Source of the DNA: an uncultured bacterium
GTDB lineage: Bacteria > Armatimonadota > UBA5829
DNA length: 64,000 bases
Direction of reading: 5' to 3'
Assembly: GCA_938074205.1 (NCBI GenBank)
Contig: CALJES010000001.1
Location: forward strand, 36,268 to 100,267
The notes below the pieces were generated by a model that was not told where the DNA came from, did no database searches, and saw only the letters and a list, made by a program, of their open reading frames with translations. The translations under genes were made by a program, and so were the position numbers. The first letter of the stretch is position 1. Each line of letters opens with the position of its first letter. Positions 6,683 to 39,791 of this stretch are shown here, piece after piece.

Positions 6683-7262
6683 TCTTCGATCGAATTCAGA
6701 CCACGAACCCATCTACTATGGTGTCGTCGACACGAAGCTCGGCTCGATAGGATTGATAGGACGTGGACCGAAGCTCTTTCGTTTGCTCAAGCCCGCAGAA
6801 TCCAAGAAATCCGCGCTCGAAAACATAAAGAGCGTACTGCTCGAACCAGCACTGGAAGACCTGGGGGCCTTTGGTGATTTACCAGAAAGGCTGCAGCATT
6901 ATTTCGAGGGAAATCGTACATGCTTTGATAACATTGCGATTGATTTGAGGGAGTACAGAGATTTCCAGGTAAAAATCATACTAGCCGCCAGGAGGATACC
7001 TTATGGCTCAGTGGTAACATACAGTGAGCTGGCTCGAATGGCAGGATTTGAAAAAGCGGCACGGGCAGCGGGTCAGGCAATGGCAAGAAACAGAACACCG
7101 ATAATAGTACCGTGCCACCGAGTCGTACGCGCTGACGGATGTCCAGGCGGTTTTGCCTGGGGAAGTCAATGGAAGATGACACTGCTTGAACTTGAGTGTT
7201 CATCACAATTACAAATAGACAAGCAGGTTGAAATAAGAAGTCAGTTGGACTCATATTTATAG
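6675..7262 (+). CDS. ogt: methylated-DNA--protein-cysteine methyltransferase
   Basis: Active-site PCHRVV (IIVPCHRVVRADG) and upstream YSELARMAG helix. 8-nt overlap with the uvrC stop. Confidence 0.9.
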   Translation: MSNLRSNSDHEPIYYGVVDTKLGSIGLIGRGPKLFRLLKPAESKKSALENIKSVLLEPALEDLGAFGDLPERLQHYFEGNRTCFDNIAIDLREYRDFQVKIILAARRIPYGSVVTYSELARMAGFEKAARAAGQAMARNRTPIIVPCHRVVRADGCPGGFAWGSQWKMTLLELECSSQLQIDKQVEIRSQLDSYL

Positions 7263-7273
7263 GCGATTGCTCT

Positions 7274-7630
7274 ATGCTGAAACGTTGGTTGCTGCACTGG
7301 TTGACAGGGTTCGTGGCCGTTTGGATTGCCGCCTGGCTCGCGAAGCGAATAGGGCTGCTACTAGGATGGCCCAACGTTTGGCGGATGGTGATCTTTGTGC
7401 CTGTCTTAGGATGCGTAAACTCGTTGATCGGACCGTTTCTCAGGATGATTTCACTTCCGATAACCTGCTTGACGTTTGGGCTTTTCGGGTTCGTAGTAAA
7501 CGCACTGGTTTTCTGGTTGGCAGGCATTCTCACAGGAGCCGTAATGAACTTCTGGAGCGCTCTTTTTGGATCGATAGTGGTAACATTCGCCGGCGGAATT
7601 ATCAGTAGGCTGATTAAGGAAATCTCTTGA
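7274..7630 (+). CDS. DUF360-type four-TM membrane protein (annotated elsewhere as phage holin family 4_2)
   Basis: 118 aa with four hydrophobic spans. GFVVNALVFWLAGIL is typical of this family. Confidence 0.65.
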   Translation: MLKRWLLHWLTGFVAVWIAAWLAKRIGLLLGWPNVWRMVIFVPVLGCVNSLIGPFLRMISLPITCLTFGLFGFVVNALVFWLAGILTGAVMNFWSALFGSIVVTFAGGIISRLIKEIS

Positions 7631-8544
7631 GCAAGGATAGGAAACAACTGGTCATTATCACAGGCATGTCCGGGTCCGGAAAGTCAATGGCAATCAACAC
7701 TTTCGAAGACCTGGAGTTTTTCTGCATTGATAACTTACCGCCAAAATTGATCCCACAGACAATAGATCTTTGGTCTCCCCCGAACCAGGTTCAGAACGTC
7801 GCGATAGTAGCAGACGTTCGAGCCGGTCAGTTCTTCGATGATTTGCTGGAAGTGTGCAGATCACTGCGGGAAAGTAATCTGGAACATTTCCAGAGACCTG
7901 TTGTGCTGTTCTTGGACGCCTCGGATTCTGAGCTGATCAAGCGTTTCAAGGAAACGCGCCGCAAGCACCCGCTGGTCACTAGCGAACGTGGAATAAACGA
8001 AGCTATCCAACTGGAACGCAGTATGCTCGAGGACCTTAAGGAAAATGCCGACAAGATAATCGACACCACCAACTTGGAACCGGAAAACCTACGGCACTTG
8101 ATACGGGAATTCTTTGGCCCCGAGAAAACACAAGACCGCTTGATGATAGCAGTGGTCTCATTCGGTTTTAAGCACGGAGTTCCGCTGGATGCAGATCTCG
8201 TGTTTGACGTTCGTTTTCTGGCGAACCCGTTCTGGGTTCCCAATCTGAGGAATTTGAACGGAACTCATCCGGAAGTAGTACGGTACGTCCTCTCGGATCC
8301 TCTCACAGAACTTCTTCTCGAAAAGCTCTTTGACCTCACAGAATTTGCTATCCCACAGTACATTCGGGAAGGCAAGGCGTATCTCACCATTGCCATTGGG
8401 TGCACTGGTGGAAAGCATAGATCGGTTGTAATTGCCAACGAACTTGCGCGTTTCCTCGCCAGCCGGAATTACGTTGTTAGAGTAGAGCACAGAGATTTGC
8501 ATCAGGCGAGAGGACAGACAGATGCGCGTCCAACAACTATTTAG
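7627..8544 (+). CDS. rapZ: RNase adapter protein RapZ
   Basis: Walker A GMSGSGKS, FCIDNLP, C-terminal GCTGGKHRSV. The TTG start overlaps the upstream stop by 4 nt. Confidence 0.9.
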   Translation: MSKDRKQLVIITGMSGSGKSMAINTFEDLEFFCIDNLPPKLIPQTIDLWSPPNQVQNVAIVADVRAGQFFDDLLEVCRSLRESNLEHFQRPVVLFLDASDSELIKRFKETRRKHPLVTSERGINEAIQLERSMLEDLKENADKIIDTTNLEPENLRHLIREFFGPEKTQDRLMIAVVSFGFKHGVPLDADLVFDVRFLANPFWVPNLRNLNGTHPEVVRYVLSDPLTELLLEKLFDLTEFAIPQYIREGKAYLTIAIGCTGGKHRSVVIANELARFLASRNYVVRVEHRDLHQARGQTDARPTTI

Positions 8545-9823
8545 CAGTCTGAAATGGCTCTACCCGGGCATGCGGGTGAAACGCTGGCTTGTGCTGATCC
8601 CTATCGGACTCGCTTTTTCCATCGGGGGGGTAGTGCTGCTTGCTAATATCAGAATAGTCGACGTCCTGGGCACTGTGGGACGCGAAGCCTTTAGACTCTT
8701 TGGGCTTGATCTTACAAGACCTGCAGTGCAGATCCCCACAGGCATCGGACTTATAATTCTTGGGATTCTGCTGGTTTTCGTCAGCCTCAGACAAGTCGTT
8801 CGCTCGATAACGAGCGTGGTAAGTCCTGAAGCCCAAGGTAAACTTGCCGACGTCGTGTTTCAACGCCGATACCTAGCTCAAGGTGAACGGATTGTGGTGG
8901 TCGGCGGAGGCACGGGTCTTTCCACGATGCTGCGCGGTTTGAAGAAACACACTTCCAACATTGTGGCGGTGGTAACCGTTACAGACGATGGCGGTTCGTC
9001 TGGACGTCTGCAGCGTGAAATGGGCGTGCTGCCCCCGGGTGATATTCGGAACTGCCTGGTAGCACTCGCCGACGCAGAACCCATGATGACTAAACTGCTT
9101 CAGTACAGATTTGGGGATGAGACGGGAGGGTTGAGTGGTCACTCATTTGGTAACTTGCTGATTGCGGCAATGACCCAGATAACCGGAGACTTCGAGAAAG
9201 CCGTAAAGGAGACTTCCAGCATTCTTGCTATTCGAGGCCGAGTGCTGCCTTCCACTTTGGACAACGTGAAGCTCCAAGCAGAAATGACGGACGGAACTAT
9301 CGTGGAAGGCGAGACGAACATTACCAAGTCTACAGCTGCGATAAACCGTGTTATGCTAAACCCGCCGGATGTTAAACCTTTGGACGAAGCTCTGCGAGCC
9401 ATAGAGTTAGCTGACTGTATTGTCATTGGGCCCGGGAGCGTTTATACGAGCATTATTCCAAATCTTCTAGTGCGTGGCATACCGGAGGCTATTCACGAGT
9501 CGGACGCTGTAAAGGTCTATGTGTGCAATGTTATGACTCAGCCCGGGGAGACTGATGGCTATCGGGCATCAGACCACGTGAAAGCTGTTGCGAGTCACGC
9601 AAGGTGCCGAGTGTTTGACTATGTTTTGATTAACCAAGAAAAGCCTACGCAGGATTTGCTAGAGAAGTACGAGGCGGAGAAACAATACTTCGTTGAGCCC
9701 GATGCCGCGGCGGTACGAGAAATGGGCTATAGACCTGTAGTGGGCAACTACATAAGCCAGACGGACGTGGTTCGACATGACCCCGATAAGCTGGCTGAAG
9801 CGATACTCAAACTGGTATACTGA
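8522..9823 (+). CDS. yvcK: YvcK-family gluconeogenesis factor (UPF0052/CofD-like) with N-terminal membrane anchor
   Basis: VVVGGGTGLSTMLRGLK, VTDDGGSSGRLQ, GPGSVYTSIIPNLL. An extra ~110 N-terminal residues contain two TM spans. Confidence 0.9.
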   Translation: MRVQQLFSSLKWLYPGMRVKRWLVLIPIGLAFSIGGVVLLANIRIVDVLGTVGREAFRLFGLDLTRPAVQIPTGIGLIILGILLVFVSLRQVVRSITSVVSPEAQGKLADVVFQRRYLAQGERIVVVGGGTGLSTMLRGLKKHTSNIVAVVTVTDDGGSSGRLQREMGVLPPGDIRNCLVALADAEPMMTKLLQYRFGDETGGLSGHSFGNLLIAAMTQITGDFEKAVKETSSILAIRGRVLPSTLDNVKLQAEMTDGTIVEGETNITKSTAAINRVMLNPPDVKPLDEALRAIELADCIVIGPGSVYTSIIPNLLVRGIPEAIHESDAVKVYVCNVMTQPGETDGYRASDHVKAVASHARCRVFDYVLINQEKPTQDLLEKYEAEKQYFVEPDAAAVREMGYRPVVGNYISQTDVVRHDPDKLAEAILKLVY

Positions 9824-9850
9824 ACCCTGCACGACTTGTATTCGAGAAAG

Positions 9851-28767: not shown

Positions 28768-30231
28768 TCACCGCGATACCTGGGCTGAGCTCTCGAGCTC
28801 GCTTTCTTTGATCGCCGCCCAATAATACTCTCGGTTTTTGATACAACCTGGGTCGGGGGCTGTAAAATCGCCAAAATAGGCGTAAGCTCTTGCCCGGCAT
28901 CCACCACACACTGCTGAATACTCACAAATGCCACAGTGGCCTTTTAAGCCTTTGTGGTCAGCAAGAGACTTTAGTAGCTCGTTTTGTTTCCACACATCTG
29001 CAATACTATCACGAGTAATATGACCGATGTTCACATCTGGCATGTACACGCAAGGTGTAATTCTGCCGTCAGGTTGCAGTGCCAAATAAGCCCTACCGAC
29101 TCCACAACCGCCGATAATTTCAGCGAGCACACTAAGGTGTTGAGCGCGGCCTGGTCCCGTGTGGGCTAGCGGCATATACTCTGGGTGACCCTGCTCACAA
29201 CACATTCTTCCGAGTTGCGGAGCAGTTGAGCACAGCGACCCGCCAGACGCCGCGTAATCATACATCATCTGAAGAGCTTCTTCACGCTGCTCAGGCGTCA
29301 GGTCTAACGCAATGTTCCGGTGTCCTCTGCCTGTGGGAATGAAGTTGTACACCATAACCTTGTCGACGCCCAGTTCGCTAGCGAGAGCAAACACTTGTGG
29401 AAGCAATTGGTAATTCTGTCTAGTCACTGTGAAAGATAGCACGGTGGAAACCGACGTGCTGCTTAGCCTTTTGATTCCCTCGACAGTCCTTTGCCACGAC
29501 CCACTGACCCCGCGGAACTCATCGTGGATCTCGCTTGTTGGTGCGTCCAAGCTTATCCCCGCATAGGCAAACTCGAGATCGGCGAGCCTAGCCGCTACTT
29601 CATCAGTGATCAACGTACCGTTTGTGTTGAGCGACAAATAGATTCCCCGAGATCGAGCTGCCTCTGCAACTTTCCAGAAGTGCGGGTCCATTAACGGCTC
29701 ACCGCCAGAAAATGAGAGCGTGGGCACCATGCTGTTGGCGATTTGCTCTACGACTTCAAGCTTTTGCTCCAAAGTAAGCTCGCCGAGGTGTTGCCCACTA
29801 CGAAGCGGCCCGGCATCTTGATAGCAGTGACGACATCTTAGGTTGCATCGCCATGTGAGGTTCCAGACCACCATAAGCGGCGCATAGAACCGCTGCGGTG
29901 TTTGGACTCCATAGTCCCTGATTGTCAACAACACGTTTGTTATAGTGCGCCTTATGTCGGTGTGCCTTAACGCCTCCTTGAACCTCTCAGGCTGAATTCC
30001 TAGTCCCTCGCGCAAAGCGTCCAGAACGCGGCAGGCTGCTTGGAAGCTAATCCAGGAAAGTGCTGCAGGTTTTTGAGGATAGCAGTCAAGCAGGTGTTGA
30101 ACTTTGAAAACCCCGTCGCTGGTTTCCAAAAGTTCATTTATCACGCTCTTCGAAATGGGGTTTTCCAACAACCAACGCAGCTTGATCAGGTTGAGAGCTT
30201 CCTTGCCCTTCTTGAGAACTAAGAGCCCCAT
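28768..30231 (-). CDS. radical SAM/SPASM-domain enzyme (AhbD/NirJ-like core) with ~110-aa N-terminal extension
   Basis: CNLRCRHCY radical SAM cluster, GGEPL, FIPTGRG. SPASM Cys motifs GGCGVG...PC... and CGICEYSAVCGGCRARAY. Start uncertain (ATG 30231 or GTG 30144); either overlaps the upstream gene end at 30134. Confidence 0.8.
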   Translation of the reverse strand: MGLLVLKKGKEALNLIKLRWLLENPISKSVINELLETSDGVFKVQHLLDCYPQKPAALSWISFQAACRVLDALREGLGIQPERFKEALRHTDIRRTITNVLLTIRDYGVQTPQRFYAPLMVVWNLTWRCNLRCRHCYQDAGPLRSGQHLGELTLEQKLEVVEQIANSMVPTLSFSGGEPLMDPHFWKVAEAARSRGIYLSLNTNGTLITDEVAARLADLEFAYAGISLDAPTSEIHDEFRGVSGSWQRTVEGIKRLSSTSVSTVLSFTVTRQNYQLLPQVFALASELGVDKVMVYNFIPTGRGHRNIALDLTPEQREEALQMMYDYAASGGSLCSTAPQLGRMCCEQGHPEYMPLAHTGPGRAQHLSVLAEIIGGCGVGRAYLALQPDGRITPCVYMPDVNIGHITRDSIADVWKQNELLKSLADHKGLKGHCGICEYSAVCGGCRARAYAYFGDFTAPDPGCIKNREYYWAAIKESELESSAQVSR

Positions 30232-31579
30232 GCAAATCACCTCCAAAACTTTCATCTGCCGTCAACGTGGCGGGTTCAATGTCGATGGTCCCATTCTCTG
30301 ATTTATCGAGCCATTGCCCGACACGGCTTCGGTATGCGAGGTTCGTAAACCACACAAACGGACGTGATGCCAACCTGCAGCCCAACCTGCGGATTATCGA
30401 ACCGTATGAGTAAATGCGCCCATAAGCCCACTTAAAACCTTCAAGAAGTTTTTCGGGACTTAGCTTTGCGGGCTTGTATACTACGTGGGAGCCATCATAC
30501 AGGCTCCAGCGTGTCTCTACAATCCTACCTTGGTTGTAGAGTTCTCTATACAACCTAGTCCCTGGGAATGGAGTCAGTATAGAAAGCTGTGCAACATCAA
30601 CGCCAGCATTTTCGACGAACTCTACAGTCTTCTCAAACACATCTTCGCCGTCGTCGTCAAAACCAAACACGAAAGAGGCAACAACAGCGATACCTAATTC
30701 GTGGAGCATCTCAATTGCCCGCTCGTACTCCTGCCTACGGTTCATCTTCTTACCCATTCGCGCCAGGGTTTCATCGGATAGTGTTTCCATTCCCACAAAG
30801 AGACCAACGCAACCAGAGTCCGAAGCCATCCTAATTATGTCGGGGTTCTTGAGCATGGTAAGAGAAGCCTGGCCCACCCACCGTTTTCCAAGGGGGCGGA
30901 GTGCGGTAAATAGACTCCTCGCATATCCCGTATGCCCAATAATGTTGTCGTCAACAAATAGTACAAACCTGCCAGGCAAGTTCTTGATCTCTTCCACAAC
31001 CAAATCGATAGGACGCACCCTATAAGTGCCTCCAAAGAATGATGTAACAGAGCAGAACGCACAGTTATATGGACAACCACGGGTAGTTTGTATCGTATTT
31101 GCAAGTAAATAGTTTCGAGGATTGATAAGATTGCGCCTAGGAATTGGGATACTGGAAGGGTCTGGCCTAGTATTGCCCGTGTAGAACTTGCGCAGTTCAC
31201 CTCGGCGAAAGTCACTTATAACTGACTCCCACTTGCCCTCAGCTTCACCTATGACTACGGCATCAGCGTGGGCAGCTGCTTCATGGGGAAGAGCAGTTGC
31301 ATGAACTCCACCTATCACGATCGTTTTTCCGTGCTCACGAAAACTATCCGCTATTTCGTAAGCGCGGTCTGCGGCAGCAGTGGTCGCTGTTATCCCCACA
31401 AGGTCACCTGCAGACTCGAAGTCTATGTTTTGGCAAGATTCATCTACGATTTCGACCTCGACGTCTGCTGGGGTGAGAGCGGCGACGGTCATAAGTGAAA
31501 GCGGCGGGAACAAGGGCTTTGAGCTCTTGGAGCGTGAATCTTTTTCCCCGGCGCAGGGAACAATTAAAGTCACCTTCAT
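30134..31579 (-). CDS. B12-binding-domain radical SAM protein (class B)
   Basis: N-terminal cobalamin-binding Rossmann-like region (DLVGITATTAAADRAYEIA, VIGGVHATA). RGCPYNCAFCSV cluster motif. ATG 31579 lies behind GGGTGGGG. Confidence 0.85.
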   Translation of the reverse strand: MKVTLIVPCAGEKDSRSKSSKPLFPPLSLMTVAALTPADVEVEIVDESCQNIDFESAGDLVGITATTAAADRAYEIADSFREHGKTIVIGGVHATALPHEAAAHADAVVIGEAEGKWESVISDFRRGELRKFYTGNTRPDPSSIPIPRRNLINPRNYLLANTIQTTRGCPYNCAFCSVTSFFGGTYRVRPIDLVVEEIKNLPGRFVLFVDDNIIGHTGYARSLFTALRPLGKRWVGQASLTMLKNPDIIRMASDSGCVGLFVGMETLSDETLARMGKKMNRRQEYERAIEMLHELGIAVVASFVFGFDDDGEDVFEKTVEFVENAGVDVAQLSILTPFPGTRLYRELYNQGRIVETRWSLYDGSHVVYKPAKLSPEKLLEGFKWAYGRIYSYGSIIRRLGCRLASRPFVWFTNLAYRSRVGQWLDKSENGTIDIEPATLTADESFGGDLHGALSSQEGQGSSQPDQAALVVGKPHFEERDK

Positions 31580-31859
31580 AAGCACCCCACCCTAGCTCAT
31601 TCTAACCGACCAGCTGCCACCTCAGCACATTGGACCTAGTTACGATGCCAACGTAAAACAAGGAACCAGTTGTCACAGCTACGACATTCACTGAAACCTG
31701 AGTAATCTCTACATCTTACCACCCGAACTCCTCGTCAGCAGCCACCTCATTCCCAACTCGATCTCATTGAATCGATGCTGAAAAAAGCTCCCTCCCGAGC
31801 CGGATGATCATTATATGGCTCAGAAGCCTTAATCGGCGTATTACGTTACTACACGCTAG

Positions 31860-32117
31860 TTATTCACCACCGCAGCAACAGCTAGATCTTGAATCTTGTC
31901 TTGCTTGCGGAGAAGCCAAACGCTCGTCTGTATACTTATCCATGTTTTCGTCGCCTGCCTTGCGCACCATCCTGGCAATGTTAACAGCATTACGAATTTC
32001 AGAATCGGTAGCACCCGCTTTACGTGCCTCCTCCAAATGATAATCCAGGCAAGGCTGACATTTTGCCACTACCGAAGCGGCTATTGCAATCAGCTCAGTT
32101 GTTTTCGGGTCTAGCAT
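31860..32117 (-). CDS. carboxymuconolactone decarboxylase/AhpD-like protein with C-terminal CCCGGE tail
   Basis: AhpD-type CxxC-H (KCQPCLDYH). A ~20-aa polar tail ends in SSCCCGGE. Confidence 0.75.
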   Translation of the reverse strand: MLDPKTTELIAIAASVVAKCQPCLDYHLEEARKAGATDSEIRNAVNIARMVRKAGDENMDKYTDERLASPQARQDSRSSCCCGGE

Positions 32118-32134: not shown

Positions 32135-32506
32135 CTAAGTTATTGCACCCTGCATACTATCGACTGCTCGCTTAATCTCTTGAAATACCTCTTCGGTGTC
32201 CCGCAGCCCCATTCGTATGGGTATCCAATGGTTCTCGTCCATCGGAACACCAGCTCTACTGAAACCGTTAGCGAGAAGTTTCATTTGCTTCTTCTCATCA
32301 CAAGCAGGTGTGATATAAACAGCATCCGGTTTCAACAGATCGGCCATCAGTGCTTCGCCATTCTCTTCGCATAGCCTCGGATGCATCACTAAGTAACTAT
32401 GTGGAAGCTCAAGCCGGATGCGCTCAGCTAACTCCCAGAAATCTATTTTCGCCATGCTTGGACAAACGCCGCTGCACGTACACATCAGAATAACAACCTT
32501 TTTCAT
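32135..32506 (-). CDS. small Cys-rich protein of unknown function (N-terminal MCTCSGVC; loosely HdrA/MvhD-like)
   Basis: 123-aa ORF, 42 nt after acr3 and 17 nt before the CMD gene. It has 6 Cys in total: MCTCSGVC (3), RLCEE, TPAC and one other. Confidence 0.55.
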   Translation of the reverse strand: MKKVVILMCTCSGVCPSMAKIDFWELAERIRLELPHSYLVMHPRLCEENGEALMADLLKPDAVYITPACDEKKQMKLLANGFSRAGVPMDENHWIPIRMGLRDTEEVFQEIKRAVDSMQGAIT

Positions 32507-32548: not shown

Positions 32549-33616
32549 TCAAACTTGCGCGCTGAGACGGTCCGGTGAAAAGTACGTTCGCCGGAAATAC
32601 AAAGCTACATTTACCAAACTGATCAATACAGGCACTTCTACCAAAGGACCGATCACCGCAGCAAACGCCTGCCCCGAATCTATTCCAAATACAGCAACTG
32701 CCACCGCTATAGCGAGCTCGAAGTTGTTGCTCGCAGCTGTAAACGAAAGCGTAGTAGATTTTTGATAACCAGCACCTACCTTGGCACTCATGTAGAAGCT
32801 TACAAGGAACATTACCACAAAGTAAATGAGCAAAGGCACAGCTACCCTTACTACATCTAAAGGCAGACGCACTATGTAATCGCCTTTCAAAGAGAACATC
32901 ACTACTATTGTAAACAACAAAGCTACCAATGTGATCGGGCTTATGCGAGGAATGAAGCGTCTTTCGTACCAGTCTCGGCCCTTCGTTTTCAGTCCAACTA
33001 CACGGCTCAATATTCCAGCGATAAACGGCACCCCAAGATATATGAAAACGCTTTTCGCTATTTCGCCAATAGTTACCTCAACCACACTCCCCTTAAGACC
33101 GAAAAGCGGGGGCAGTTTGGTAACGAACACGTAGGCGTACAACGAGTAAAACAGCACTTGGAATATCGAATTAAACGCTACAAGGCCGGCTGCATACTCT
33201 CTGTCACCGTCAGCAAGGTCGTTCCAAACGATTACCATTGCTATGCATCTGGCAAGTCCTATCATAATGAGGCCGACCATAAGCTCAGTATATGTTCTTA
33301 GGAAGAGAATTGCCAGCAAAAACATTAGGATAGGCCCGACAATCCAGTTCTGAAACAGCGATAATGCCAGGACTCGCCAGTCACGAAAAACGTCGCCAAG
33401 CTCTTCGTATCGCACCTTCGCAAGAGGCGGATACATCATAAGTATTAGGCCGACCGCTATTGGAATATTCGTAGTGCCTATGGAAAAACGGTTCCAAAAG
33501 TCGGCTATAGTGGGCACCGCGTAGCCAGCTATTACCCCAGCTGCCATAGAAAGGAATATCCAAAGAGTAAGGTAACGATCGAGGAATGAAAGCCTTTTTG
33601 CAACTGCATCAGTCAT
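32549..33616 (-). CDS. acr3: ACR3-family arsenite efflux transporter
   Basis: [13 protein letters not shown] start and ten TM spans. The start overlaps the arsC stop by 8 nt. Confidence 0.9.
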
Positions 33617-34040
33617 CTTTTCTGCAACCCCCAGTTATTTCCGCTATCAGATTTTCGACTTTGCTTTTGATCTCATCTCGAATCAGGCGCACTTTCTCTA
33701 TAGGTTGTCCTTTAGGATCCTCCAAACCCCAGTCCTCAGTTGGGATGAGCGATGCCGGACACAATCCTTCGGTATCAACGCCGCATCCCATCGTGACAAT
33801 CCGATCTGCCGACTCAACCATCTCAAGAGTAAGAAGTTTCGGATAGTGGCCAGACATATCATAGCCGATCTCTCTCATTGCCTCGACCACGGTAGGATTT
33901 AAATCTTCGGCCGGTAGTGTGCCGGCTGATTGCGCTTCGATTTTACCCGCACCAAGTCTTTTGGCAAACGCTTCAGCCATTTGACTACGGCCTGAATTGT
34001 GCACGCAAACGAAAATCACTTTCTTTGTCTTTTTCGCCAT
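33609..34040 (-). CDS. arsC: arsenate reductase, thioredoxin-coupled LMW-PTP type
   Basis: P-loop [12 protein letters not shown] (CX5R) plus the downstream Cys pair in [12 protein letters not shown]. Confidence 0.9.
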
Positions 34041-34049
34041 TGCAAAACC

Positions 34050-35090
34050 TCACAAAAATCTCTGATACTGCACCATAAGAGTGTCATCGTCTAGCTCTGT
34101 AGATTTTTCTCGCTTGAAAACGTAGTTGACCTGCAACTTTTCAAAATCACCCCTAATGTGCCAGTTCAAACCTACTGTTGACCAGGCAATATCTTTGGAA
34201 TCAATGACGAAACGGTTTGGATCGAACACCTCGTATCGTGCCGCGAGAGCAACTCGCCTCGATACAAACCCTGAATACTGCACGTAGTACCCTTCCGCGC
34301 TAAGATCGGGAATACCCGCATCGCCTCCCAAGTAGCGTGCGCGAAGATACTCGGCCCGCATTGACCAAAACTCAGTTTCCAAAGCTGCCGCAAGATCTGA
34401 TCGCGCGTCGCGCCCTCGAAAACGCCGATACGCAATCGGCGCTCCTGGAAGCTGAGCTGTAAAATCCATGTTGCGGTCGTATCTAAATGCTGCGGCGAGC
34501 TCCGTATGAAACAGCAATCCAGGTGCCACGTACTTTTCGTAAATCGTTCGACCAGCCAACAGGGGGCCATTTCCAGCGAAACTTTGGTTCGCACCGTTAC
34601 CGTCAAACAATCCCAAAGCAACACCTACCGAACCTAGAGTTGTATCCCACTGGATGCCGCGACCGCGTGCAAAAGAATTGCCCACACTGCCAAACGGAAT
34701 CAGCCTATCAGTGGACTGCGCCCTATCTATCACAGCCAGTTTCCAATCTGGCGTAAATCGCTCCATGCCGAAAGGAGGTTTAAACTGGCCGAGCGTGATA
34801 CGTGTACGCCCCAACGACCTTGTCAAACTGAACTCTTGAATAGTAAAGCCATCCGTAGCGCTTCGATTGTTGGTCTTGTAAAGCAGTTGGACATAGTATT
34901 GCCAGTCTCGAGCAAATACTCCCTGACCATATAGTTTCAGCCTTCTTAGCCCAAGATACCCCTTCAGGTCTTCAGCATTCGTGTAACGAAGTTGAAAGTA
35001 GCTTACCCACTTGTTCCCCGCTGGCCAAACAGCCTGCTGACACGCTGTCAGTAAGGCTAAACACAACATGGAATACAATGGCAGGTTCAC
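34050..35090 (-). CDS. outer-membrane beta-barrel porin, phosphate-selective OprO/OprP-like
   Basis: Signal peptide LCLALLTACQQA, GQFKPPFGMERF block, alternating beta-strand pattern, C-terminal aromatic residue (QRFL). GTG 35090 overlaps the cytochrome TGA (GTGA). Confidence 0.6.
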   Translation of the reverse strand: MNLPLYSMLCLALLTACQQAVWPAGNKWVSYFQLRYTNAEDLKGYLGLRRLKLYGQGVFARDWQYYVQLLYKTNNRSATDGFTIQEFSLTRSLGRTRITLGQFKPPFGMERFTPDWKLAVIDRAQSTDRLIPFGSVGNSFARGRGIQWDTTLGSVGVALGLFDGNGANQSFAGNGPLLAGRTIYEKYVAPGLLFHTELAAAFRYDRNMDFTAQLPGAPIAYRRFRGRDARSDLAAALETEFWSMRAEYLRARYLGGDAGIPDLSAEGYYVQYSGFVSRRVALAARYEVFDPNRFVIDSKDIAWSTVGLNWHIRGDFEKLQVNYVFKREKSTELDDDTLMVQYQRFL

Positions 35091-36820
35091 TTTTGCGCCT
35101 CCACGACACTGCGCTTTAAGCCAACGTGCTGCCACATCGGCACTGTAATCGGGCGTCCGTAAGCATCAAAAGGATCTAAGATAACAGGTGAATTGAAGAA
35201 AGGAGAATCAACGGTGTGGCAATCTTTACAACCACCTGCCCCTAGCGCTTTGCTTGCCGGCGAGACGTTGTGGCTGAATGTCCACCTCAAAGGCTGAGCT
35301 TGAGGATGGTATCGAATTGAGATTAGCCTATCCCCACTCAACTGCCAAACTCGGTTGCCTTTCACATAAACCGGCGATATATGGGCAAAGCGACCACCGG
35401 CCAAAACCTCACGAATAGCCCGAAGCATTGCAGTTATCTCGATTTCGGTGTTGGCTTCGGGTTTGCCGTCACCGTTATCATCGTTGATAGCATCCTTGAC
35501 CTTCTCATAGGCTTTCGCGGTTTCTGAGAGGAACAGCGGATGAACGATCCCTCCTATCCGATTTCCCCACCATACGGGAAGGAGAGCATTTCCGGAATAG
35601 ATTTTGCCGTCCCTAAGCCTAAAATAGGCCGGAGTCCACTTTCCGGTCTCACCGTACTTCTTAGCTCCTTTTACCGTAGGAAGACCGGCTGCAACACCAG
35701 TAGTAGTATCAACGGTACCTACAGCGGCGACATTATGCTCGGTCACGTGACAGGTGACGCAGGCAATCCTGGCCAGATGAGATTTTGGAATAGACTTGTG
35801 AGTCGGCCGAGACTTGGAACCAGCACCCATGTGGCATCCCTCGCAGGAAAGAGTTGGGTCGTCGAGCTCATTGTGAAGCATTACGTCGTTGGAACGACCT
35901 TTGCGAATTTGGTGGTCGGGACCTGCCGTATGGCAAGTTATACACTGCATTCCCGCCGAGGTATGTACGTCGGTCTGCCGGTTGTCATACCAGACGTGAC
36001 CACGCTTCTTTACCTCTGCTTCACCATGACAAAGAAGGCAATTTGAATCTCCAGGACGACCAATCTTGAGGCTAATAGTATTATCCTTGTTAAAGAGCCA
36101 CTTCTTATAGAGGACCTTCGGAGAATCTCCGTTCTTGACCGATCCTTCGACTATCCCCAACCCTGCACCCGCAGTGGCAGACCACTTAAAGTTCGCTTTT
36201 GAAAGCTGATCGCGCCGAGCTTCTCCATCATATCCCGAAAGATGGCACATCAAGCAATCTATCTCAACGACTCCGGATTTGTGCCAAGCCGCCCTGTGGT
36301 AGTCGCCATCAAGACTGTTAGCCAGTTCAGGATGTTTTGCCTGTCTGATATCGTATCGCAGGCCATCACGATCTCGCTCCATCGGCCCTCCGCCCACGTG
36401 ACAGAACCCACAAGCCTGCGAGTATTCATAAGGTGTCATAGCAACATGCTGGGCAGAAGGATTCCTTTTCTTTGCAACCCACAGGTAGGACATATGTATC
36501 TGTCGGCCAAACATCCCATCTGAAGATGCCCAAGGTCTGCCTATCTTGAGACCGTAGTCATCAGATATTCTGTCTGCTCCTAGCTGGACGTGGTAACTCT
36601 TCGATATCAAATCGTAGTCGTGACACGAACCACATGTTTGCTTGGGACTATAGGGCTGAGGATTAGAGGAGTTGGGGTCGATCGGTTTTCCTTCACAGTC
36701 AAGCAGTTCAATCGCAGGATGTGACGAGTAGTTCGCCGAACCATAGCCAATAGTCACCCAAATAACGGCGGCCACAATTGGCAACCACAGCACGCTCAGA
36801 AGTGGAAAACCTTTATCCAT
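35087..36820 (-). CDS. membrane-anchored octaheme c-type cytochrome
   Basis: Eight CxxCH motifs (CGSCH, CGFCH, CLMCH, CLLCH, CITCH, CEGCH, CVTCH, CKDCH). N-terminal anchor FPLLSVLWLPIVAAVIWV. ATG 36820 lies behind GGGAGGTG. Confidence 0.85.
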   Translation of the reverse strand: MDKGFPLLSVLWLPIVAAVIWVTIGYGSANYSSHPAIELLDCEGKPIDPNSSNPQPYSPKQTCGSCHDYDLISKSYHVQLGADRISDDYGLKIGRPWASSDGMFGRQIHMSYLWVAKKRNPSAQHVAMTPYEYSQACGFCHVGGGPMERDRDGLRYDIRQAKHPELANSLDGDYHRAAWHKSGVVEIDCLMCHLSGYDGEARRDQLSKANFKWSATAGAGLGIVEGSVKNGDSPKVLYKKWLFNKDNTISLKIGRPGDSNCLLCHGEAEVKKRGHVWYDNRQTDVHTSAGMQCITCHTAGPDHQIRKGRSNDVMLHNELDDPTLSCEGCHMGAGSKSRPTHKSIPKSHLARIACVTCHVTEHNVAAVGTVDTTTGVAAGLPTVKGAKKYGETGKWTPAYFRLRDGKIYSGNALLPVWWGNRIGGIVHPLFLSETAKAYEKVKDAINDDNGDGKPEANTEIEITAMLRAIREVLAGGRFAHISPVYVKGNRVWQLSGDRLISIRYHPQAQPLRWTFSHNVSPASKALGAGGCKDCHTVDSPFFNSPVILDPFDAYGRPITVPMWQHVGLKRSVVEAQK

Positions 36821-37083
36821 CTGGACACCTCCCGTTACCCCTCTATTCAAGCTGTTTTCCTAGTACTTCGCAAAATCGCATTGACACTCACACAACTTCA
36901 AGACATTGGAACATCTTGCTAGAAAACTGAGCTATCTTGGCACAGACCGCGCCGACGGAATAATTCCTCATCCCCTCACACAAGCACCACCGGGGCTGTG
37001 CTGTGAAGTATGCTCGAAATACACATATGTCCGATAAGCAACGCAAAAATGCAAGCCAGACTAGAATGTTTCGCCGGACTCAT

Positions 37084-37662
37084 CTACCTCGCTTTCGATG
37101 GCTTGTCGAGATCTATTCCCTGATCCCTGAACTTACGCAAGATGTCCTGTTTGGAATAGAATCCCTCGTGCCTAAAGAACTCCTCGCCCTTTTCATCAAA
37201 GAAGATCTGCGTGGGGATTACTCTTATACCATACTTGCGTGCAGCATCTGGATTTTCCCATACGTCTATGAACTCCACCTTGAGTTTGCCTTTGTACTCC
37301 CGCGCCAGCTCCTCAAGAATGGGAGCCATCATCTTACACGGGATACACTTAGTTGCCCCAAGATCCAGCAGCCGCGGCAGCTGCTTTGTCACCGACTTCG
37401 TCGGCTGTTTGGTAGGACTACTCTTATGAGCTGTGCTCTTGCTCTCTGTTGTTTTCTTTCTAGGAGCCGACTTCGACTGCTGCTTGGACTCCTTCGTTTT
37501 GGGCGAGCTTTTCTCCGACGAAGGCTTTGCCTTCGCCCTGCTTTGACTGGCAGTCTTCGTCTTAGTGCTGCCTGTAGTTGACTGCACCGAAGGTGCTTGA
37601 CACCAGGTGAACAAGAAAACGGCGACCACCGCTGCAATAAATATGCGGAGCTGCCTAGACAT
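37084..37662 (-). CDS. exported thioredoxin-fold protein with long Lys/Ser/Thr-rich linker
   Basis: N-terminal anchor IFIAAVVAVFLFTW, ~80-aa low-complexity K/S/T region, then a Trx fold with CIPC (GATKCIPCKMMAPILEEL...VIPTQIFF). Confidence 0.8.
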   Translation of the reverse strand: MSRQLRIFIAAVVAVFLFTWCQAPSVQSTTGSTKTKTASQSRAKAKPSSEKSSPKTKESKQQSKSAPRKKTTESKSTAHKSSPTKQPTKSVTKQLPRLLDLGATKCIPCKMMAPILEELAREYKGKLKVEFIDVWENPDAARKYGIRVIPTQIFFDEKGEEFFRHEGFYSKQDILRKFRDQGIDLDKPSKAR

Positions 37663-37699: not shown

Positions 37700-37933
37700 C
37701 TACCCGATCATCTGTTTCAGCTCCTCCAGGCTCGGCACTCGACCAGCCACCTTGACCTGACCGTCAACTGCCAGCGCAGGTGTCATCATGACGCCAAAAG
37801 ACATAATTTTCGATATGTCGGTCACTTTTTCGATTTCATAATCAATCCCAAGAGACTTAGCCGCCTCCTCAGCCAACTGAGCAAGCTTTTGACATTTGGG
37901 ACATCCTGTGCCCAGTATTTGCAGTTTCTTCAT
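37700..37933 (-). CDS. small thioredoxin-like protein (redox-active disulfide protein 2 type)
   Basis: 77 aa. MKKLQILGTGCPKCQ CxxC start, typical partner of DUF318/ArsP-like permeases. Confidence 0.85.
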   Translation of the reverse strand: MKKLQILGTGCPKCQKLAQLAEEAAKSLGIDYEIEKVTDISKIMSFGVMMTPALAVDGQVKVAGRVPSLEELKQMIG

Positions 37934-37981: not shown

Positions 37982-39283
37982 CTAACCATATATAGATCCA
38001 AAAACCAGCCCCGCGATTGTGGAAAGCACGACGACTAACACAATAAACACCAGTGTTTTGCGCAATCCCATAACCTTGCCGATAACGAGCATACTTGGAA
38101 GCGACAAAGCTGGTCCAGCCAATAGCAATGCTAAAGCCGGTCCTTTACCCATGCCGCTTCCCAGCAAACCCTGAACGATAGGAACTTCGGTTAGAGTGGC
38201 GAAATACATAAGCGCACCAGCTACCGAGGCAAACAAGTTAGATGTGAGCGAGTTGCCTCCCACAGCCGCGCTCACCCACTGCGATGGTATTAGACCCTCG
38301 CGGCCCGGTCTGCCTAGCATTGCCCCAGAAACTAGCACGCCAACTAACAAAAGCGGGAGTATCTGCTTAGCGAATCCCCAAGTAGATGCGAACCACTCTC
38401 CTGCCTCACCTTTATCAGTACTGGTTATTATCGACAAGCCAACGATTGCCACCGTAAAGGGCACTAAGGGATAAGAGCGGACTATCAAGGCAACGAGAGC
38501 TGTCGCAACACCAGCTAACAGAACCTTCCACCAGTCTACGGAGTACCAAATCACCAGCACGAAACCAAACACGATTGCTGTCAAGCTGGTTAACCACCAT
38601 TTCGCGGAATATATCGCGTAAAACACACCAGTATGCTGAACAGGTTTACCCCAATTGGCAAAGACTAGAACCGCTATCATAGAACCGAAGTAAATAACAT
38701 TTTGCCAAAGGGGTCTTTTCACCTCCGGCTCAGGCATGTCCATCTGCGCCTCAGCTTTCTGAAGCTCCTCGTTGCGGAAGAAAAAATGCATGGCAAGCCC
38801 AATTATTAAGCTGAATGATACTGCCAAAACAGCTCTTGCAATACCTATCTCTGGTCCTAGTATACGAGCCGTGAGAATAATAGCCAACACGTTTATGGCA
38901 GGTCCGGAATACAAGAACGCACACGCCGGTCCCAATCCGGCGCCCATGCGATAAATGCCCGCAAAGAGCGGCAAAACTGTACACGAACACACTGCAAGAA
39001 CCGAACCTGATACTGACGCTACTCCATAGGCGAGAGTCTTTTTTGCCCGTGCTCCTAGATATTTCATAACCGACGCTTGGCTCACAAAAACAGCAATGGC
39101 ACCAGCTATGAAAAACGCAGGTACTAAACACAAGATTACGTGTTCGCGGGCGTACCACCGCACAAGATGAAGAGATTCTCTGATCGCATTGTCGAATCTG
39201 GGGTTGCCTACTGGCAGGTAGTAGCAAGCCAAGAATACGAGAATGATTAGGAGCAACTTACGCCATTCGTTTTTCCAACTCAT
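37982..39283 (-). CDS. DUF318/ArsP-like permease
   Basis: Polytopic membrane protein with the conserved CSC motif (SVLAVCSCTVLPLF). Sits directly after arsR. Confidence 0.75.
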   Translation of the reverse strand: MSWKNEWRKLLLIILVFLACYYLPVGNPRFDNAIRESLHLVRWYAREHVILCLVPAFFIAGAIAVFVSQASVMKYLGARAKKTLAYGVASVSGSVLAVCSCTVLPLFAGIYRMGAGLGPACAFLYSGPAINVLAIILTARILGPEIGIARAVLAVSFSLIIGLAMHFFFRNEELQKAEAQMDMPEPEVKRPLWQNVIYFGSMIAVLVFANWGKPVQHTGVFYAIYSAKWWLTSLTAIVFGFVLVIWYSVDWWKVLLAGVATALVALIVRSYPLVPFTVAIVGLSIITSTDKGEAGEWFASTWGFAKQILPLLLVGVLVSGAMLGRPGREGLIPSQWVSAAVGGNSLTSNLFASVAGALMYFATLTEVPIVQGLLGSGMGKGPALALLLAGPALSLPSMLVIGKVMGLRKTLVFIVLVVVLSTIAGLVFGSIYG

Positions 39284-39410: not shown

Positions 39411-39731
39411 CTACTCCGCCAGCGCCAATTGCTCTTCAGCCGTCGCGCGCAGCACGGACTCGACACAGTCGGAAAATTCGAGGATGCAAGGGCAACGTAG
39501 CGAGTAAAATACTTGGGAACCTTCCTTGCGGTCCTGAACTATGCCCACACTCTTTAAGAGCGCAAGGTGCTTAGAAACCGTAGAAACATCGGCGCCGACC
39601 ATCTGTGTAAGCTCACAAACGCACCTCTCGCCGCGAGATAACTCAGAAACAAGGAACAGACGCGTCGGGTGAGCCATCGCCTTGATTATGCGCACCCGTG
39701 CTTCATATTTGGCCCGGGTTCTCTCGTCCAC
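39411..39731 (-). CDS. arsR: ArsR/SmtB-family metalloregulator
   Basis: Winged HTH with CVC metalloid site (ELSRGERCVCELTQMVG) and HPTRLFLVSEL. Confidence 0.9.
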   Translation of the reverse strand: MDERTRAKYEARVRIIKAMAHPTRLFLVSELSRGERCVCELTQMVGADVSTVSKHLALLKSVGIVQDRKEGSQVFYSLRCPCILEFSDCVESVLRATAEEQLALAE

Positions 39732-39751: not shown

Positions 39752-39791
39752 CAGCATTTGCAATTATAGCCAAATCGCCAAATGCTGTCAA
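39752..39791 (-). promoter_or_regulatory. consensus sigma70 promoter overlapped by a 9-bp inverted repeat (candidate ArsR operator)
   Basis: On the minus strand: TTGACA (39791..39786), 17-nt spacer, TATAAT (39768..39763). The perfect inverted repeat CAGCATTTG (39752..60) / CAAATGCTG (39779..87) brackets the -10 and overlaps the -35. It lies 21 nt upstream of the arsR ATG. Confidence 0.6.

Follow-up and report, generated by a model that had tools for sequence, protein, structure and literature searches.

An ars island with an envelope branch: an octaheme cytochrome and an OprP/OprO-type channel recur among arsenic genes of several phyla

INTRODUCTION

To our knowledge, the described arsenic redox enzymes are all either molybdoenzymes (Arr, Aio, and Arx) or cytoplasmic thiol reductases (ArsC), and ars operons are regarded as cytoplasmic detoxification units. 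In Shewanella ANA-3, the arr genes adjoin ars and are regulated by ArsR. Several isolates reduce or respire arsenate without arr. The activity of Desulfomicrobium sp. Ben-RB reportedly lies in a membrane-bound c-type cytochrome whose gene is not known to have been identified. Arsenate reduction by that bacterium is attributed to a cytochrome, with no ArrA or ArsC found, in the passage of PMC9751042 that cites Macy 2000. Genes for CcdA and thioredoxin were noted in ars operons in 2010, their function being left open (PMC2963123). Here, we describe a 64-kb stretch of DNA (the window, contig CALJES010000001.1) from an uncultured member of the Armatimonadota, in which genes for an octaheme c-type cytochrome and an outer-membrane porin stand within a string of arsenic resistance genes, the genes of this module all lying on the minus strand.

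The window holds an ars island with an undescribed envelope branch, of which the porin and the ars operon are themselves of known kinds. A full-text literature search found no description of the cytochrome or the porin as an ars island component.

RESULTS

The cytochrome-porin pair

The envelope branch centers on two genes.

35087..36820, minus strand: octaheme c-type cytochrome, 577 amino acids (aa), with eight CxxCH motifs, an N-terminal helix, and a beta-rich C-terminal half
34050..35090, minus strand: 16-strand outer-membrane channel of the OprP/OprO superfamily, 346 aa (PF07396; AlphaFold2 [AF2] model; Foldseek)

The stop codon of the cytochrome gene overlaps the start codon of the porin gene as GTGA, just as a first-pass annotation of this DNA had read it; the cytochrome gene ends in GCG CAA AAG TGA, and the GTG lies at 35090..35088. 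The GTG is supported as the porin start because the porins at two related loci, L082 and L085, start at the equivalent position, also with a stop/start overlap of 4 nucleotides (nt). To judge from this arrangement, the two genes are shown to be co-translated. Another in-frame GTG, at 35135 and thus upstream of the porin start, would add a basic N-region.

Recurrence among arsenic genes in relatives

Homologs of the cytochrome split into three clades, A (that of the window), B, and C, with boundaries drawn from a fast MAFFT alignment. Clade A comprises the close relatives, at least 52% identical to the window protein and 575 to 590 aa long, nearly all from metagenome-assembled genomes (MAGs) of Armatimonadota/Chthonomonadales and one from a MAG labelled Anaerolineae; some members have a C-terminal thioredoxin domain. 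In clade B, proteins of ~850 aa join the octaheme domain to a cytochrome b of the FdnI type (PF01292). Clade C, the sister clade, is large, and many of its members carry a C-terminal multi-helix membrane domain. The locus survey covered the 80 best cytochrome loci in species-representative genomes, and the window is syntenic with two Armatimonadota MAG contigs at 70 to 75% nucleotide identity.

The link to arsenic genes is uniform among the close relatives. In 15 of the 15 informative clade A loci, all from Armatimonadota, arsR, a gene for an ArsP_1 permease, and a gene for a small thioredoxin lie upstream of the cytochrome gene. The comparison set consisted of 26 loci whose cytochromes are 35 to 46% identical to that of the window (L014 to L037, L039, and L040, the clade B range), mostly ~850-aa cytochrome b fusions by size and by the Pfam matches of those checked, and none of the 26 showed ars genes (Fisher p ~1e-11, computed with 16 clade A loci rather than 15). 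Four operons labelled by Pfam, with Trx for thioredoxin and Trx3 for Thioredoxin_3, illustrate the variety of gene orders: arsR-ArsP-Trx3-Trx-CcdA-cytochrome-arsC-acr3; Trx-CcdA-DUF169-ArsPa-ArsPb-cytochrome-porin-arsC-acr3; arsR-ArsP-Trx3-DUF6951-cytochrome-methyltransferase-arsC-acr3-Trx-CcdA; and arsR-123aa-ferredoxin-ArsPa-ArsPb-cytochrome-porin. Clade C cytochromes are often encoded within full ars islands (ArsA, ArsD, ArsH, ArsM, ArsC, and Acr3), as were all three of the further clade C proteins that were looked up, the ArsM matches in relatives being possibly generic methyltransferases. At L105 (11767-12975), in a Bryobacterales ars island, a fusion of an ArsM-like methyltransferase with a C-terminal Thioredoxin_3/ArsE-like domain is encoded directly 3' of the cytochrome gene.

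The adjacency of the cytochrome and porin genes is conserved in relatives as well, and the pair recurs in at least 13 genomes of several lineages. The porin gene follows the cytochrome gene in the window, L001/L082, L085, and L138, and also in L002 plus L086, read across a contig break, and the 4-nt overlap is present in the window, L082, L085, and L138. The opposite order, porin before cytochrome, was seen in L053, L100, L106, L110, L111, and L113, and in L104, L105, and L107 the two genes lie within a few kilobases of each other. Genes for ArsPa and ArsPb stand ahead of the pair as ArsPa-ArsPb-cytochrome-porin in L082, L085, and the broken L002-L086 locus and as ArsPa-ArsPb-porin-cytochrome in L111 and L113; in relatives, ArsPb is translationally coupled upstream of the cytochrome, with the porin downstream. 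A tblastn match to the porin in L004 proved spurious, there being no porin open reading frame (ORF) at that place. From the side of the porin, about two-thirds of its subfamily have ars genes no more than 6 kb away, and those with such neighbors belong to Armatimonadota, Acidobacteriota, and MAGs labelled Nitrospirae and Deferribacteres, among others. Overall, the lineages showing linkage are Armatimonadota, Acidobacteriota including Bryobacterales, and MAGs labelled Nitrospira, Planctomycetota, Abyssobacteria, and Deltaproteobacteria/Desulfobacterium.

Some loci depart from the pairing. The porin occurs without the cytochrome, together with arsR, an FmdE/zf-dksA protein, and a TauE/SafE-type anion exporter, in L089 to L099, L102, L103, and L118 to L121 (Acidobacteriota and Nitrospirae-labelled MAGs). 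In L137 (8426-10047), which is syntenic with L085, a 192-aa ORF with no Pfam match occupies the place of the cytochrome gene and has a 4-nt overlap with the porin gene; it may be a degraded or replaced cytochrome gene. Directly upstream of distant clade C cytochromes, a barrel of the Alginate_exp (AlgE-like) family takes the place of Porin_O_P (L063 at 8353-9831, L259 at 6563-7984, L044, L045, L073, and L078), and rhodanese, AcrB-type resistance-nodulation-division (RND) pumps, and a ChrA-type transporter recur near these cytochromes.

A third partner is a thioredoxin. The gene for CcdA lies directly upstream of the cytochrome gene in nine clade A loci, and natural cytochrome-thioredoxin fusions occur in L008 (10001-11944) and L010 (9751-11610), encoding P0035 and P0049, in which the motif CIPC is found at the C-terminal thioredoxin domain. 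The two fusions begin with a cleavable-looking signal peptide instead of a hydrophobic anchor. Because cytochrome and thioredoxin are fused in some relatives, with the same CIPC, a Rosetta-stone link makes the tethered thioredoxin of the window the closest functional partner of the cytochrome, and from this gene and domain organization we hold firmly that the cytochrome works with the CIPC thioredoxin.

The first-pass annotation had envisaged an envelope-level module, with a dedicated oxyanion porin, that may act on arsenic (or on Sb, Se, Te, or S oxyanions) upstream of ArsC and Acr3. The ars linkage of both genes is strong and extends over several phyla, and that part of the proposal stands; its functional part, action on arsenic upstream of ArsC/Acr3, is unsupported. 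The cytochrome-porin pair firmly belongs to an arsenic island, and, as far as gene neighborhoods can show it, both the cytochrome-porin cassette and the cytochrome-thioredoxin(-CcdA) linkage are shown to recur in ars islands of several phyla.

The gene string

In order of transcription, the string comprises arsR, ArsP_1, the Thioredoxin_3/ArsE-like gene, the tethered thioredoxin gene, a gap, the cytochrome gene, the porin gene, arsC, acr3, the gene for a 123-aa Cys-rich protein, and a CMD/AhpD-like gene. The genes around the pair are as follows.

39411..39731, minus strand: arsR, ArsR/SmtB repressor with a CVC motif (PF01022 HTH_5, E = 1e-13; ERCVCEL in the translation)
37982..39283, minus strand: ArsP_1-family permease, 433 aa, with a membrane CSC motif (PF03773, E = 6.5e-68)
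37700..37933, minus strand: small cytoplasmic thioredoxin-like protein of the ArsE/MTH895 family (PF13192, E = 1e-28; TIGR00412, 112.7 bits against a cutoff of 62)
37084..37662, minus strand: membrane-tethered extracytoplasmic thioredoxin, 192 aa (PF00085, E = 3e-15; CIPC active site)
33609..34040, minus strand: arsC, cytoplasmic arsenate reductase of the low-molecular-weight protein tyrosine phosphatase type (PF01451 [LMWPc], E = 9e-24; no signal peptide visible)
32549..33616, minus strand: acr3, arsenite efflux permease (TIGR00832, 461 bits against a cutoff of 283)
32135..32506, minus strand: 123-aa Cys-rich protein with an ArsD-like MCTCSGVC motif (no Pfam or NCBIfam match)
31860..32117, minus strand: CMD/AhpD-like small protein (PF02627, E = 5e-15)

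Pfam and NCBIfam matches confirmed the same-strand neighbors of the pair, namely arsR, the ArsP-like permease gene, two thioredoxin genes, arsC, and acr3, and arsC does begin 9 nt past the porin stop. With an ArsR repressor, an LMWPc-type ArsC, and Acr3 encoded in one orientation, this is a canonical ars operon. The NCBIfam arsenate reductase models all scored ArsC under their cutoffs. In the tethered thioredoxin, a hydrophobic N terminus is followed by a Ser/Lys/Thr-rich linker of ~70 aa.

The 123-aa protein starts with MKKVVILMCTCSGVC and has a weak BLASTP match to the Cys motif of the ArsD metallochaperone (E = 0.005). L001, L081, L085, and L097 retain it behind either acr3 or arsR, and in relatives a ferredoxin of ~90 aa, which the window does not have, usually comes next; by its motif, the 123-aa protein may represent an uncharacterized As(III)-binding protein family. 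The CMD gene occupies the same place in L001/L082, being the last gene of the string that is shared with L001, and another one is present in the L261 ars operon.

The earlier reading that the window encodes no molybdoenzyme also held: nine ORFs of at least 450 aa were scanned without finding a molybdopterin domain, and the remaining three of that size encode the cytochrome plus two radical-SAM proteins. The latter are encoded after the ars string (28768-31585, minus strand) as a B12-binding radical-SAM protein and a radical-SAM/SPASM protein that is NirJ/AhbD-like but under all cutoffs, and the two ORFs overlap by 122 nt as called. They were rejected as members of the module, both being absent from the syntenic L001 locus. 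Homologs of the B12-binding protein with 37 to 38% identity are encoded within ~7 kb of the cytochrome gene in L058 and L061.

Promoter, operator, and a deletion before the cytochrome gene

The only strong promoter of the string, TTGACA-17-TATAAT (matching 12 of 12 positions of the sigma-70 consensus), lies upstream of arsR at 39791-39763 on the minus strand. Overlapping it at 39752-39787 is a perfect 9-nt inverted repeat, CAGCATTTG-N18-CAAATGCTG, which is unique in the window, 0.03 matches being expected by chance. The repeat is likely an ArsR operator candidate, through which ArsR would regulate the string. Upstream of arsR in relatives, neither this repeat nor any conserved perfect repeat was found.

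An arsenic-independent promoter in the 233-nt gap at 36821..37083 had been named earlier as something that would speak against the module, and in the gap there was neither a promoter match on the coding strand nor a terminator nor another copy of the arsR operator. Given the lone strong promoter at arsR and none in the gap, a single ArsR-controlled transcript would be the simplest reading. An origin for the gap emerged from the comparison with L001, to which the window aligns up to 36933 and again from 36727 on, skipping L001 1260-4000. The ~2.7-kb segment missing from the window encodes CcdA, DUF169, and a split ArsP (ArsPa and ArsPb). By this alignment, the gap before the cytochrome gene is a deletion scar, and the window genome has lost the CcdA that relatives keep upstream. 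A tblastn search of the 64-kb window (1e-4) found no CcdA/DsbD homolog; the CIPC thioredoxin is present. The idea that split ArsPa/ArsPb might be a DsbD-like thiol relay was dropped, as the L082 proteins have no membrane cysteine pair.

The octaheme cytochrome and its family

The product of 35087..36820 was confirmed to have exactly eight CxxCH motifs (CGSCH, CGFCH, CLMCH, CLLCH, CITCH, CEGCH, CVTCH, and CKDCH) behind one N-terminal hydrophobic helix. The gene starts with ATG, an alternative TTG lying at 36850, and the N terminus, MDKGFPLLSVLWLPIVAAVIWVTIGYG, forms a single hydrophobic helix of the inner-membrane type. That the cytochrome faces the periplasm is firm. It is the sole CxxCH-rich (multiheme) ORF of the window, and nearly all full-length close relatives retain the eight motifs.

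A tight grouping with enzymes of established function would have undercut the proposed module, and in comparison with octaheme families no grouping with an enzyme of known function was seen. The tetrathionate reductase octaheme model TIGR04315 gave 47.6 bits against a cutoff of 375, with residues 194-372 aligning to model positions 94-254 only, and the ExtM model NF040943 gave 17.8 bits against a cutoff of 800. Pfam and NCBIfam scans of all three clades returned generic multiheme domains only, the match of the window protein to MtrC/MtrF domain II/IV (28.5 bits) falling under the cutoff of 30. A sequence profile search of the PDB produced marginal matches to NrfA/NrfB, with E values of 0.008 or worse. 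The AF2 model, built on a 35-sequence alignment, had a predicted local distance difference test score (pLDDT) of 63, and a Foldseek search of the PDB with it returned nothing below E = 0.46, so that no fold was assigned. An exhaustive profile search gathered 366 clusters (50% identity) at E values of 1e-30 or lower, two of which make up the clade of the window. An exact-sequence lookup of the window cytochrome in the contig index gave no entry. By these comparisons, the cytochrome belongs to an uncharacterized family that is covered by no curated family.

In an alignment of 121 family members, H77, H286, H303, H341, H348, and H517 are His wherever the residue is present. Column 34 is His in 96 sequences (clades A and B) and Cys in 18 (clade C). 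Columns 109 and 275 are His in ~48 sequences, including the clade of the window: column 108/109 is His in clade A, Tyr in clade B, and Cys or an in-frame TGA in clade C, and column 275 is His in clade A, Phe in clade B, and Ala in clade C. In clade A, the invariant histidines would thus suffice for eight bis-His hemes, and there appears to be no conserved free cysteine, which together point to an electron transfer protein and not to an obvious catalyst.

Probable selenocysteine variants in the sister clade

The variable column of clade C lies in the motif GG[NR]W[C/U]SP and aligns with window residues 108/109 (I-H). It holds Cys at 24 loci and an in-frame TGA at 15; the latter are L038 (10232), L047 (10232), L075 (10238), L029 (10295), L041 to L045, L052, L056, L065, L069, L074, and L079. 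The in-frame stops are TGA in all 15 cases, and each has a conserved hairpin downstream that is centered on CAGUUGGC. The hairpin is of the CCGCCAGUUGGCGG type and stands ~20 nt 3' of each in-frame TGA. Because every in-frame stop is TGA and the downstream hairpin is conserved, selenocysteine is likely, and the TGA-bearing relatives are probably unannotated selenocysteine multiheme cytochromes. Despite the conserved CAGUUGGC core, minimum-free-energy folds of the region resembling a selenocysteine insertion sequence were no better than those of shuffled sequences. A degenerate DNA pattern for GGxW[C/U]SP, scanned across genome contigs, returned 120 loci, mostly unrelated. The selenocysteine variants flag a probable active-site position.

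The porin

The first-pass annotation had placed the porin near OprO/OprP, and PF07396 (Porin_O_P) indeed matched residues 48-351 with 53 bits against a cutoff of 20.9 (E = 4e-14); the beta-barrel signature seen earlier is also there, as GQFKPPFGMERFT. All 63 of the 63 porin homologs found carry PF07396, and a profile built from four porin relatives reached OprO in the PDB with E = 6e-10. The AF2 model of the porin, based on 33 homologs, has 16 strands, a pLDDT of 91.4, and a predicted template modeling score (pTM) of 0.85, and Foldseek ranked OprP first (2o4v; E = 3e-16, TM 0.71) and OprO second (4rjw). Aligned by profile, the OprO ladder arginines R59/R60 match R49/R50 of the window porin, which are invariant in the subfamily, and K121 of OprO corresponds to R111, so that a basic residue is kept. 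At the central site, D114 of OprO is replaced by K104, S124 by P/S, S125 by D, and K126 by W; with these residues altered, a phosphate-specific site cannot be assumed. The porin is firmly a solute channel, and by homology and model it is a compact, divergent channel of the OprP/OprO type that is probably anion selective. Its leader is followed by a lipobox-like LLTA-C (window 35020-35090), which reads LIVG-C in L082 (5638-5700), and a lipid-anchored barrel is a possibility.

DISCUSSION

A possible periplasmic redox step on arsenic

We propose, with a probability of roughly 0.4, that the cytochrome and porin form the envelope branch of one ArsR-controlled arsenic island and serve a periplasmic redox step on an arsenical. 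An anionic arsenical would cross the outer membrane through the porin and undergo a two-electron redox step in the periplasm. Because two-electron arsenic chemistry normally requires molybdenum or thiols, and one-electron As(V)/As(IV)/As(III) steps via heme are very unfavorable, we place the chemistry on thiols. In clade A, these would be the thiols of the CIPC thioredoxin that is tethered beside, or fused to, the cytochrome, and in the sister clade, Cys or selenocysteine within the cytochrome itself would take this part. The eight hemes would wire the thiol site to the membrane (quinone) pool or to a thiol electron pool, using in relatives a fused cytochrome b, a multi-helix membrane domain, or CcdA. 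The PF01292 fusion in the relatives of 35 to 46% identity implies such a link to the quinone pool.

As to direction, we slightly prefer the reduction of a pentavalent species (arsenate or a methyl- or thio-arsenate), which would make the module a molybdenum-free counterpart of Arr. Reduction is favored because the CcdA and thioredoxin partners are reductive, because bis-His hemes usually have low potentials, and because of the adjacency of arr and ars and the report on Ben-RB. The reverse is nearly as likely: trivalent arsenicals exported by ArsP or Acr3 would be oxidized to an anion that leaves via the porin. Oxidation is arguable because the gene order ArsPa-ArsPb-cytochrome-porin runs from the inside to the outside and the porin gene is often found beside those of inner-membrane exporters, and also because ArsM and ArsH co-occur and cytochromes b of the FdnI type usually run in the quinone-reducing direction.

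Several points weigh against arsenic redox chemistry by this module. We know of no precedent for such chemistry linked to heme, and the unfavorable one-electron steps count here, too. The clade A cytochrome has neither the Cys nor the selenocysteine and no obvious open heme site, and it may be a mere wire with the catalyst elsewhere; its heme ligation is read from the alignment only, the AF2 model being poor. CcdA-thioredoxin is encoded in an ars operon without the cytochrome in L097, and such pairs in cytochrome-free ars operons have been reported (PMC2963123); they could serve maturation or thiol protection instead. With ArsC in the cytoplasm here, detoxification would seem to need no periplasmic reductase. 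The cassette occurs with no visible ars genes in L138, where an RND pump is encoded, and in L053, which together with the loci at 35 to 46% identity indicates that the family is not arsenic-specific by nature. Lastly, nearly all gene neighborhoods come from MAG contigs, and many annotations are our own ORF calls combined with tblastn or phmmer matches.

If the proposal is true, an envelope-level step linked to electron transport is added to arsenic handling. We give a substantial chance, though well short of even, to a wider claim: served by a dedicated outer-membrane anion channel, this cytochrome family would form the redox core of a widespread periplasmic arsenic oxidoreductase that needs no molybdenum, working with the CIPC thioredoxin in clade A and with its own Cys or selenocysteine in the sister clade. 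Were it true, the family would supply the missing enzyme of Arr-independent, cytochrome-associated arsenate reduction or respiration, or of anaerobic oxidation of exported As(III) or methyl-As(III). Candidate genes are in any case now concrete for the puzzle of arsenate reduction that is attributed to a cytochrome and proceeds without arr.

Alternative explanations

The best-surviving alternative, which we rate as rather unlikely, is periplasmic thiol homeostasis, in which the thioredoxin (with CcdA in relatives) and the cytochrome would hold the redox state of extracytoplasmic cysteines during As(III) export, the arsenical passing the cytochrome untransformed. In its variants, the CxxCH motifs of the apocytochrome would be reduced for the maturation of this 16-cysteine protein, As(III)-binding CxxC motifs would be kept reduced, or the hemes would serve disulfide exchange as a source or sink; the porin would independently let an anion out or in. 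In cytochrome c maturation, CcdA-thioredoxin forms the classical reductive branch, and CIPC resembles the CxPC of reductive thioredoxins of the ResA/TlpA type. The L097 operon, Trx-CcdA-porin-arsC-acr3, has no cytochrome, and the clade A histidines, being enough for all-bis-His hemes, fit a pure electron carrier. However, thiol homeostasis leaves unexplained the very presence of an octaheme cytochrome in the operon, the translational coupling of the porin in several lineages, and the purpose of the quinone-linked cytochrome b domain and the Cys/selenocysteine site of relatives. Moreover, the window genome retained the cytochrome, thioredoxin, and porin despite its loss of CcdA. Even if periplasmic thiol protection is the function, the module would explain the CcdA and thioredoxin genes noted in ars operons in 2010.

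It is unlikely, and somewhat more so, that the cassette handles another oxyanion and merely shares metalloid islands and ArsR-type regulation. Candidates would be antimonate/antimonite, selenite, tellurite, thiosulfate/tetrathionate/sulfite, chromate, and phosphate; in one version, a phosphate-selective porin would aid phosphate uptake under arsenate stress beside a general respiratory cytochrome. Such a role could draw on the best structural match of the porin, the phosphate-specific OprP, but the central phosphate-site residues of OprP are changed here (S125 to D and K126 to W), and no pst or pho genes were seen at any locus examined. The cytochrome family has weak, partial similarities to tetrathionate reductase, NrfA/NrfB, and MtrC-type hemes; an RND pump but no visible ars gene accompanies the L138 cassette; and a ChrA-type chromate transporter, rhodanese, and a porin-adjacent TauE are found at some loci. 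ArsR-family regulators are established to sense many ligands. Nevertheless, the neighbors are specifically arsenic genes (ArsC, Acr3 above its equivalog cutoff, ArsA/D, ArsH, ArsM, and ArsP), and the ars linkage holds across several lineages.

That the pair has no functional link and is a passenger in a variable ars island, its co-occurrence there arising from island mobility and shared MAG ancestry, is very improbable. The island does vary (the window is without CcdA, DUF169, and ArsPab, L081 is without the porin, and the radical-SAM genes are peculiar to the window), and many of the contexts come from related MAGs. However, the linkage recurs between cytochromes sharing only 32 to 37% identity and across phyla, where the order of the genes and even the porin family differ, and translational coupling ties the cytochrome to ArsPb upstream and to the porin downstream. 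The 26 loci at 35 to 46% identity, with zero ars genes, serve as an internal control.

Finally, an Mtr/Pcc-like conduit, with the cytochrome inside the barrel passing electrons across the outer membrane to extracellular acceptors, was rejected as a most improbable reading despite the adjacent, translationally coupled barrel and multiheme cytochrome genes and the weak Pfam match, below the cutoff, to MtrC/MtrF domain II/IV, since MtrB-type sheaths have ~26 strands and the barrel here is OprP/OmpF-like, being built of 346 residues with 16 strands, a pore of the OprP type leaves no room for a heme protein, the cytochrome of 577 aa has an N-terminal helix of the inner-membrane type, and the window has no second cytochrome as a partner on the outer face.

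Comparison with known systems

The likeness of the window cytochrome to the Ben-RB activity is purely circumstantial. Comparison also extends to octaheme and His/Cys-heme enzymes, namely octaheme tetrathionate reductase (OTR), NrfA, MccA, TsdA, and SoxAX: there are eight c hemes here, and over hemes 3 to 7 a weak alignment to OTR and NrfA/NrfB was obtained. Where the clade of the window has His, Cys or selenocysteine stands in the sister clade, which is reminiscent of His/Cys-ligated catalytic hemes. The window cytochrome differs in scoring far under the family cutoffs, in having no CxxCK motif, and in carrying His at the switch positions.

In domain makeup, the ~850-aa PF01292 fusions of clade B resemble inner-membrane multiheme proteins fused to cytochrome b of the FdnI/HydC type, such as Geobacter CbcL. 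Unlike the CbcL-type fusions, the window cytochrome has no cytochrome b domain but one N-terminal helix and a thioredoxin partner. With Mtr/Pcc and the Geobacter Ext cluster (porin-like ExtI, rhodanese, and cytochromes; selenite and tellurite reduction), the locus shares adjacent barrel and multiheme genes and the metalloid context, and rhodanese adjoins some of the distant cytochrome relatives, too. It differs from these systems in its 16-strand OprP-type barrel, the absence of an outer-surface cytochrome, and an ExtM score far under the cutoff.

OprP and OprO of Pseudomonas aeruginosa, selective for phosphate and diphosphate (PF07396), share with the window porin the 16-strand barrel, the ladder arginines R59/R60, and a basic residue at the K121 position; the window porin is ~17 to 20% identical to them and ~65 to 80 residues shorter. 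OprP and OprO sit in Pho regulons, whereas the window porin is encoded in an ars island. Like the proposed module, ArrAB, AioAB, and ArxAB carry out periplasmic arsenic redox chemistry and are encoded in or beside ars islands, but they are molybdopterin enzymes, and the candidate here has only hemes and thiols. Another close arrangement is that of described ars operons with a thioredoxin/CcdA/ArsE block, which the window matches as arsR-ArsP-Trx3(ArsE-like)-thioredoxin and to which its relatives add DGC and CcdA in the same order. As described, those blocks have neither a cytochrome nor a porin, whereas here an octaheme cytochrome comes next after the block and is in some cases fused to it.

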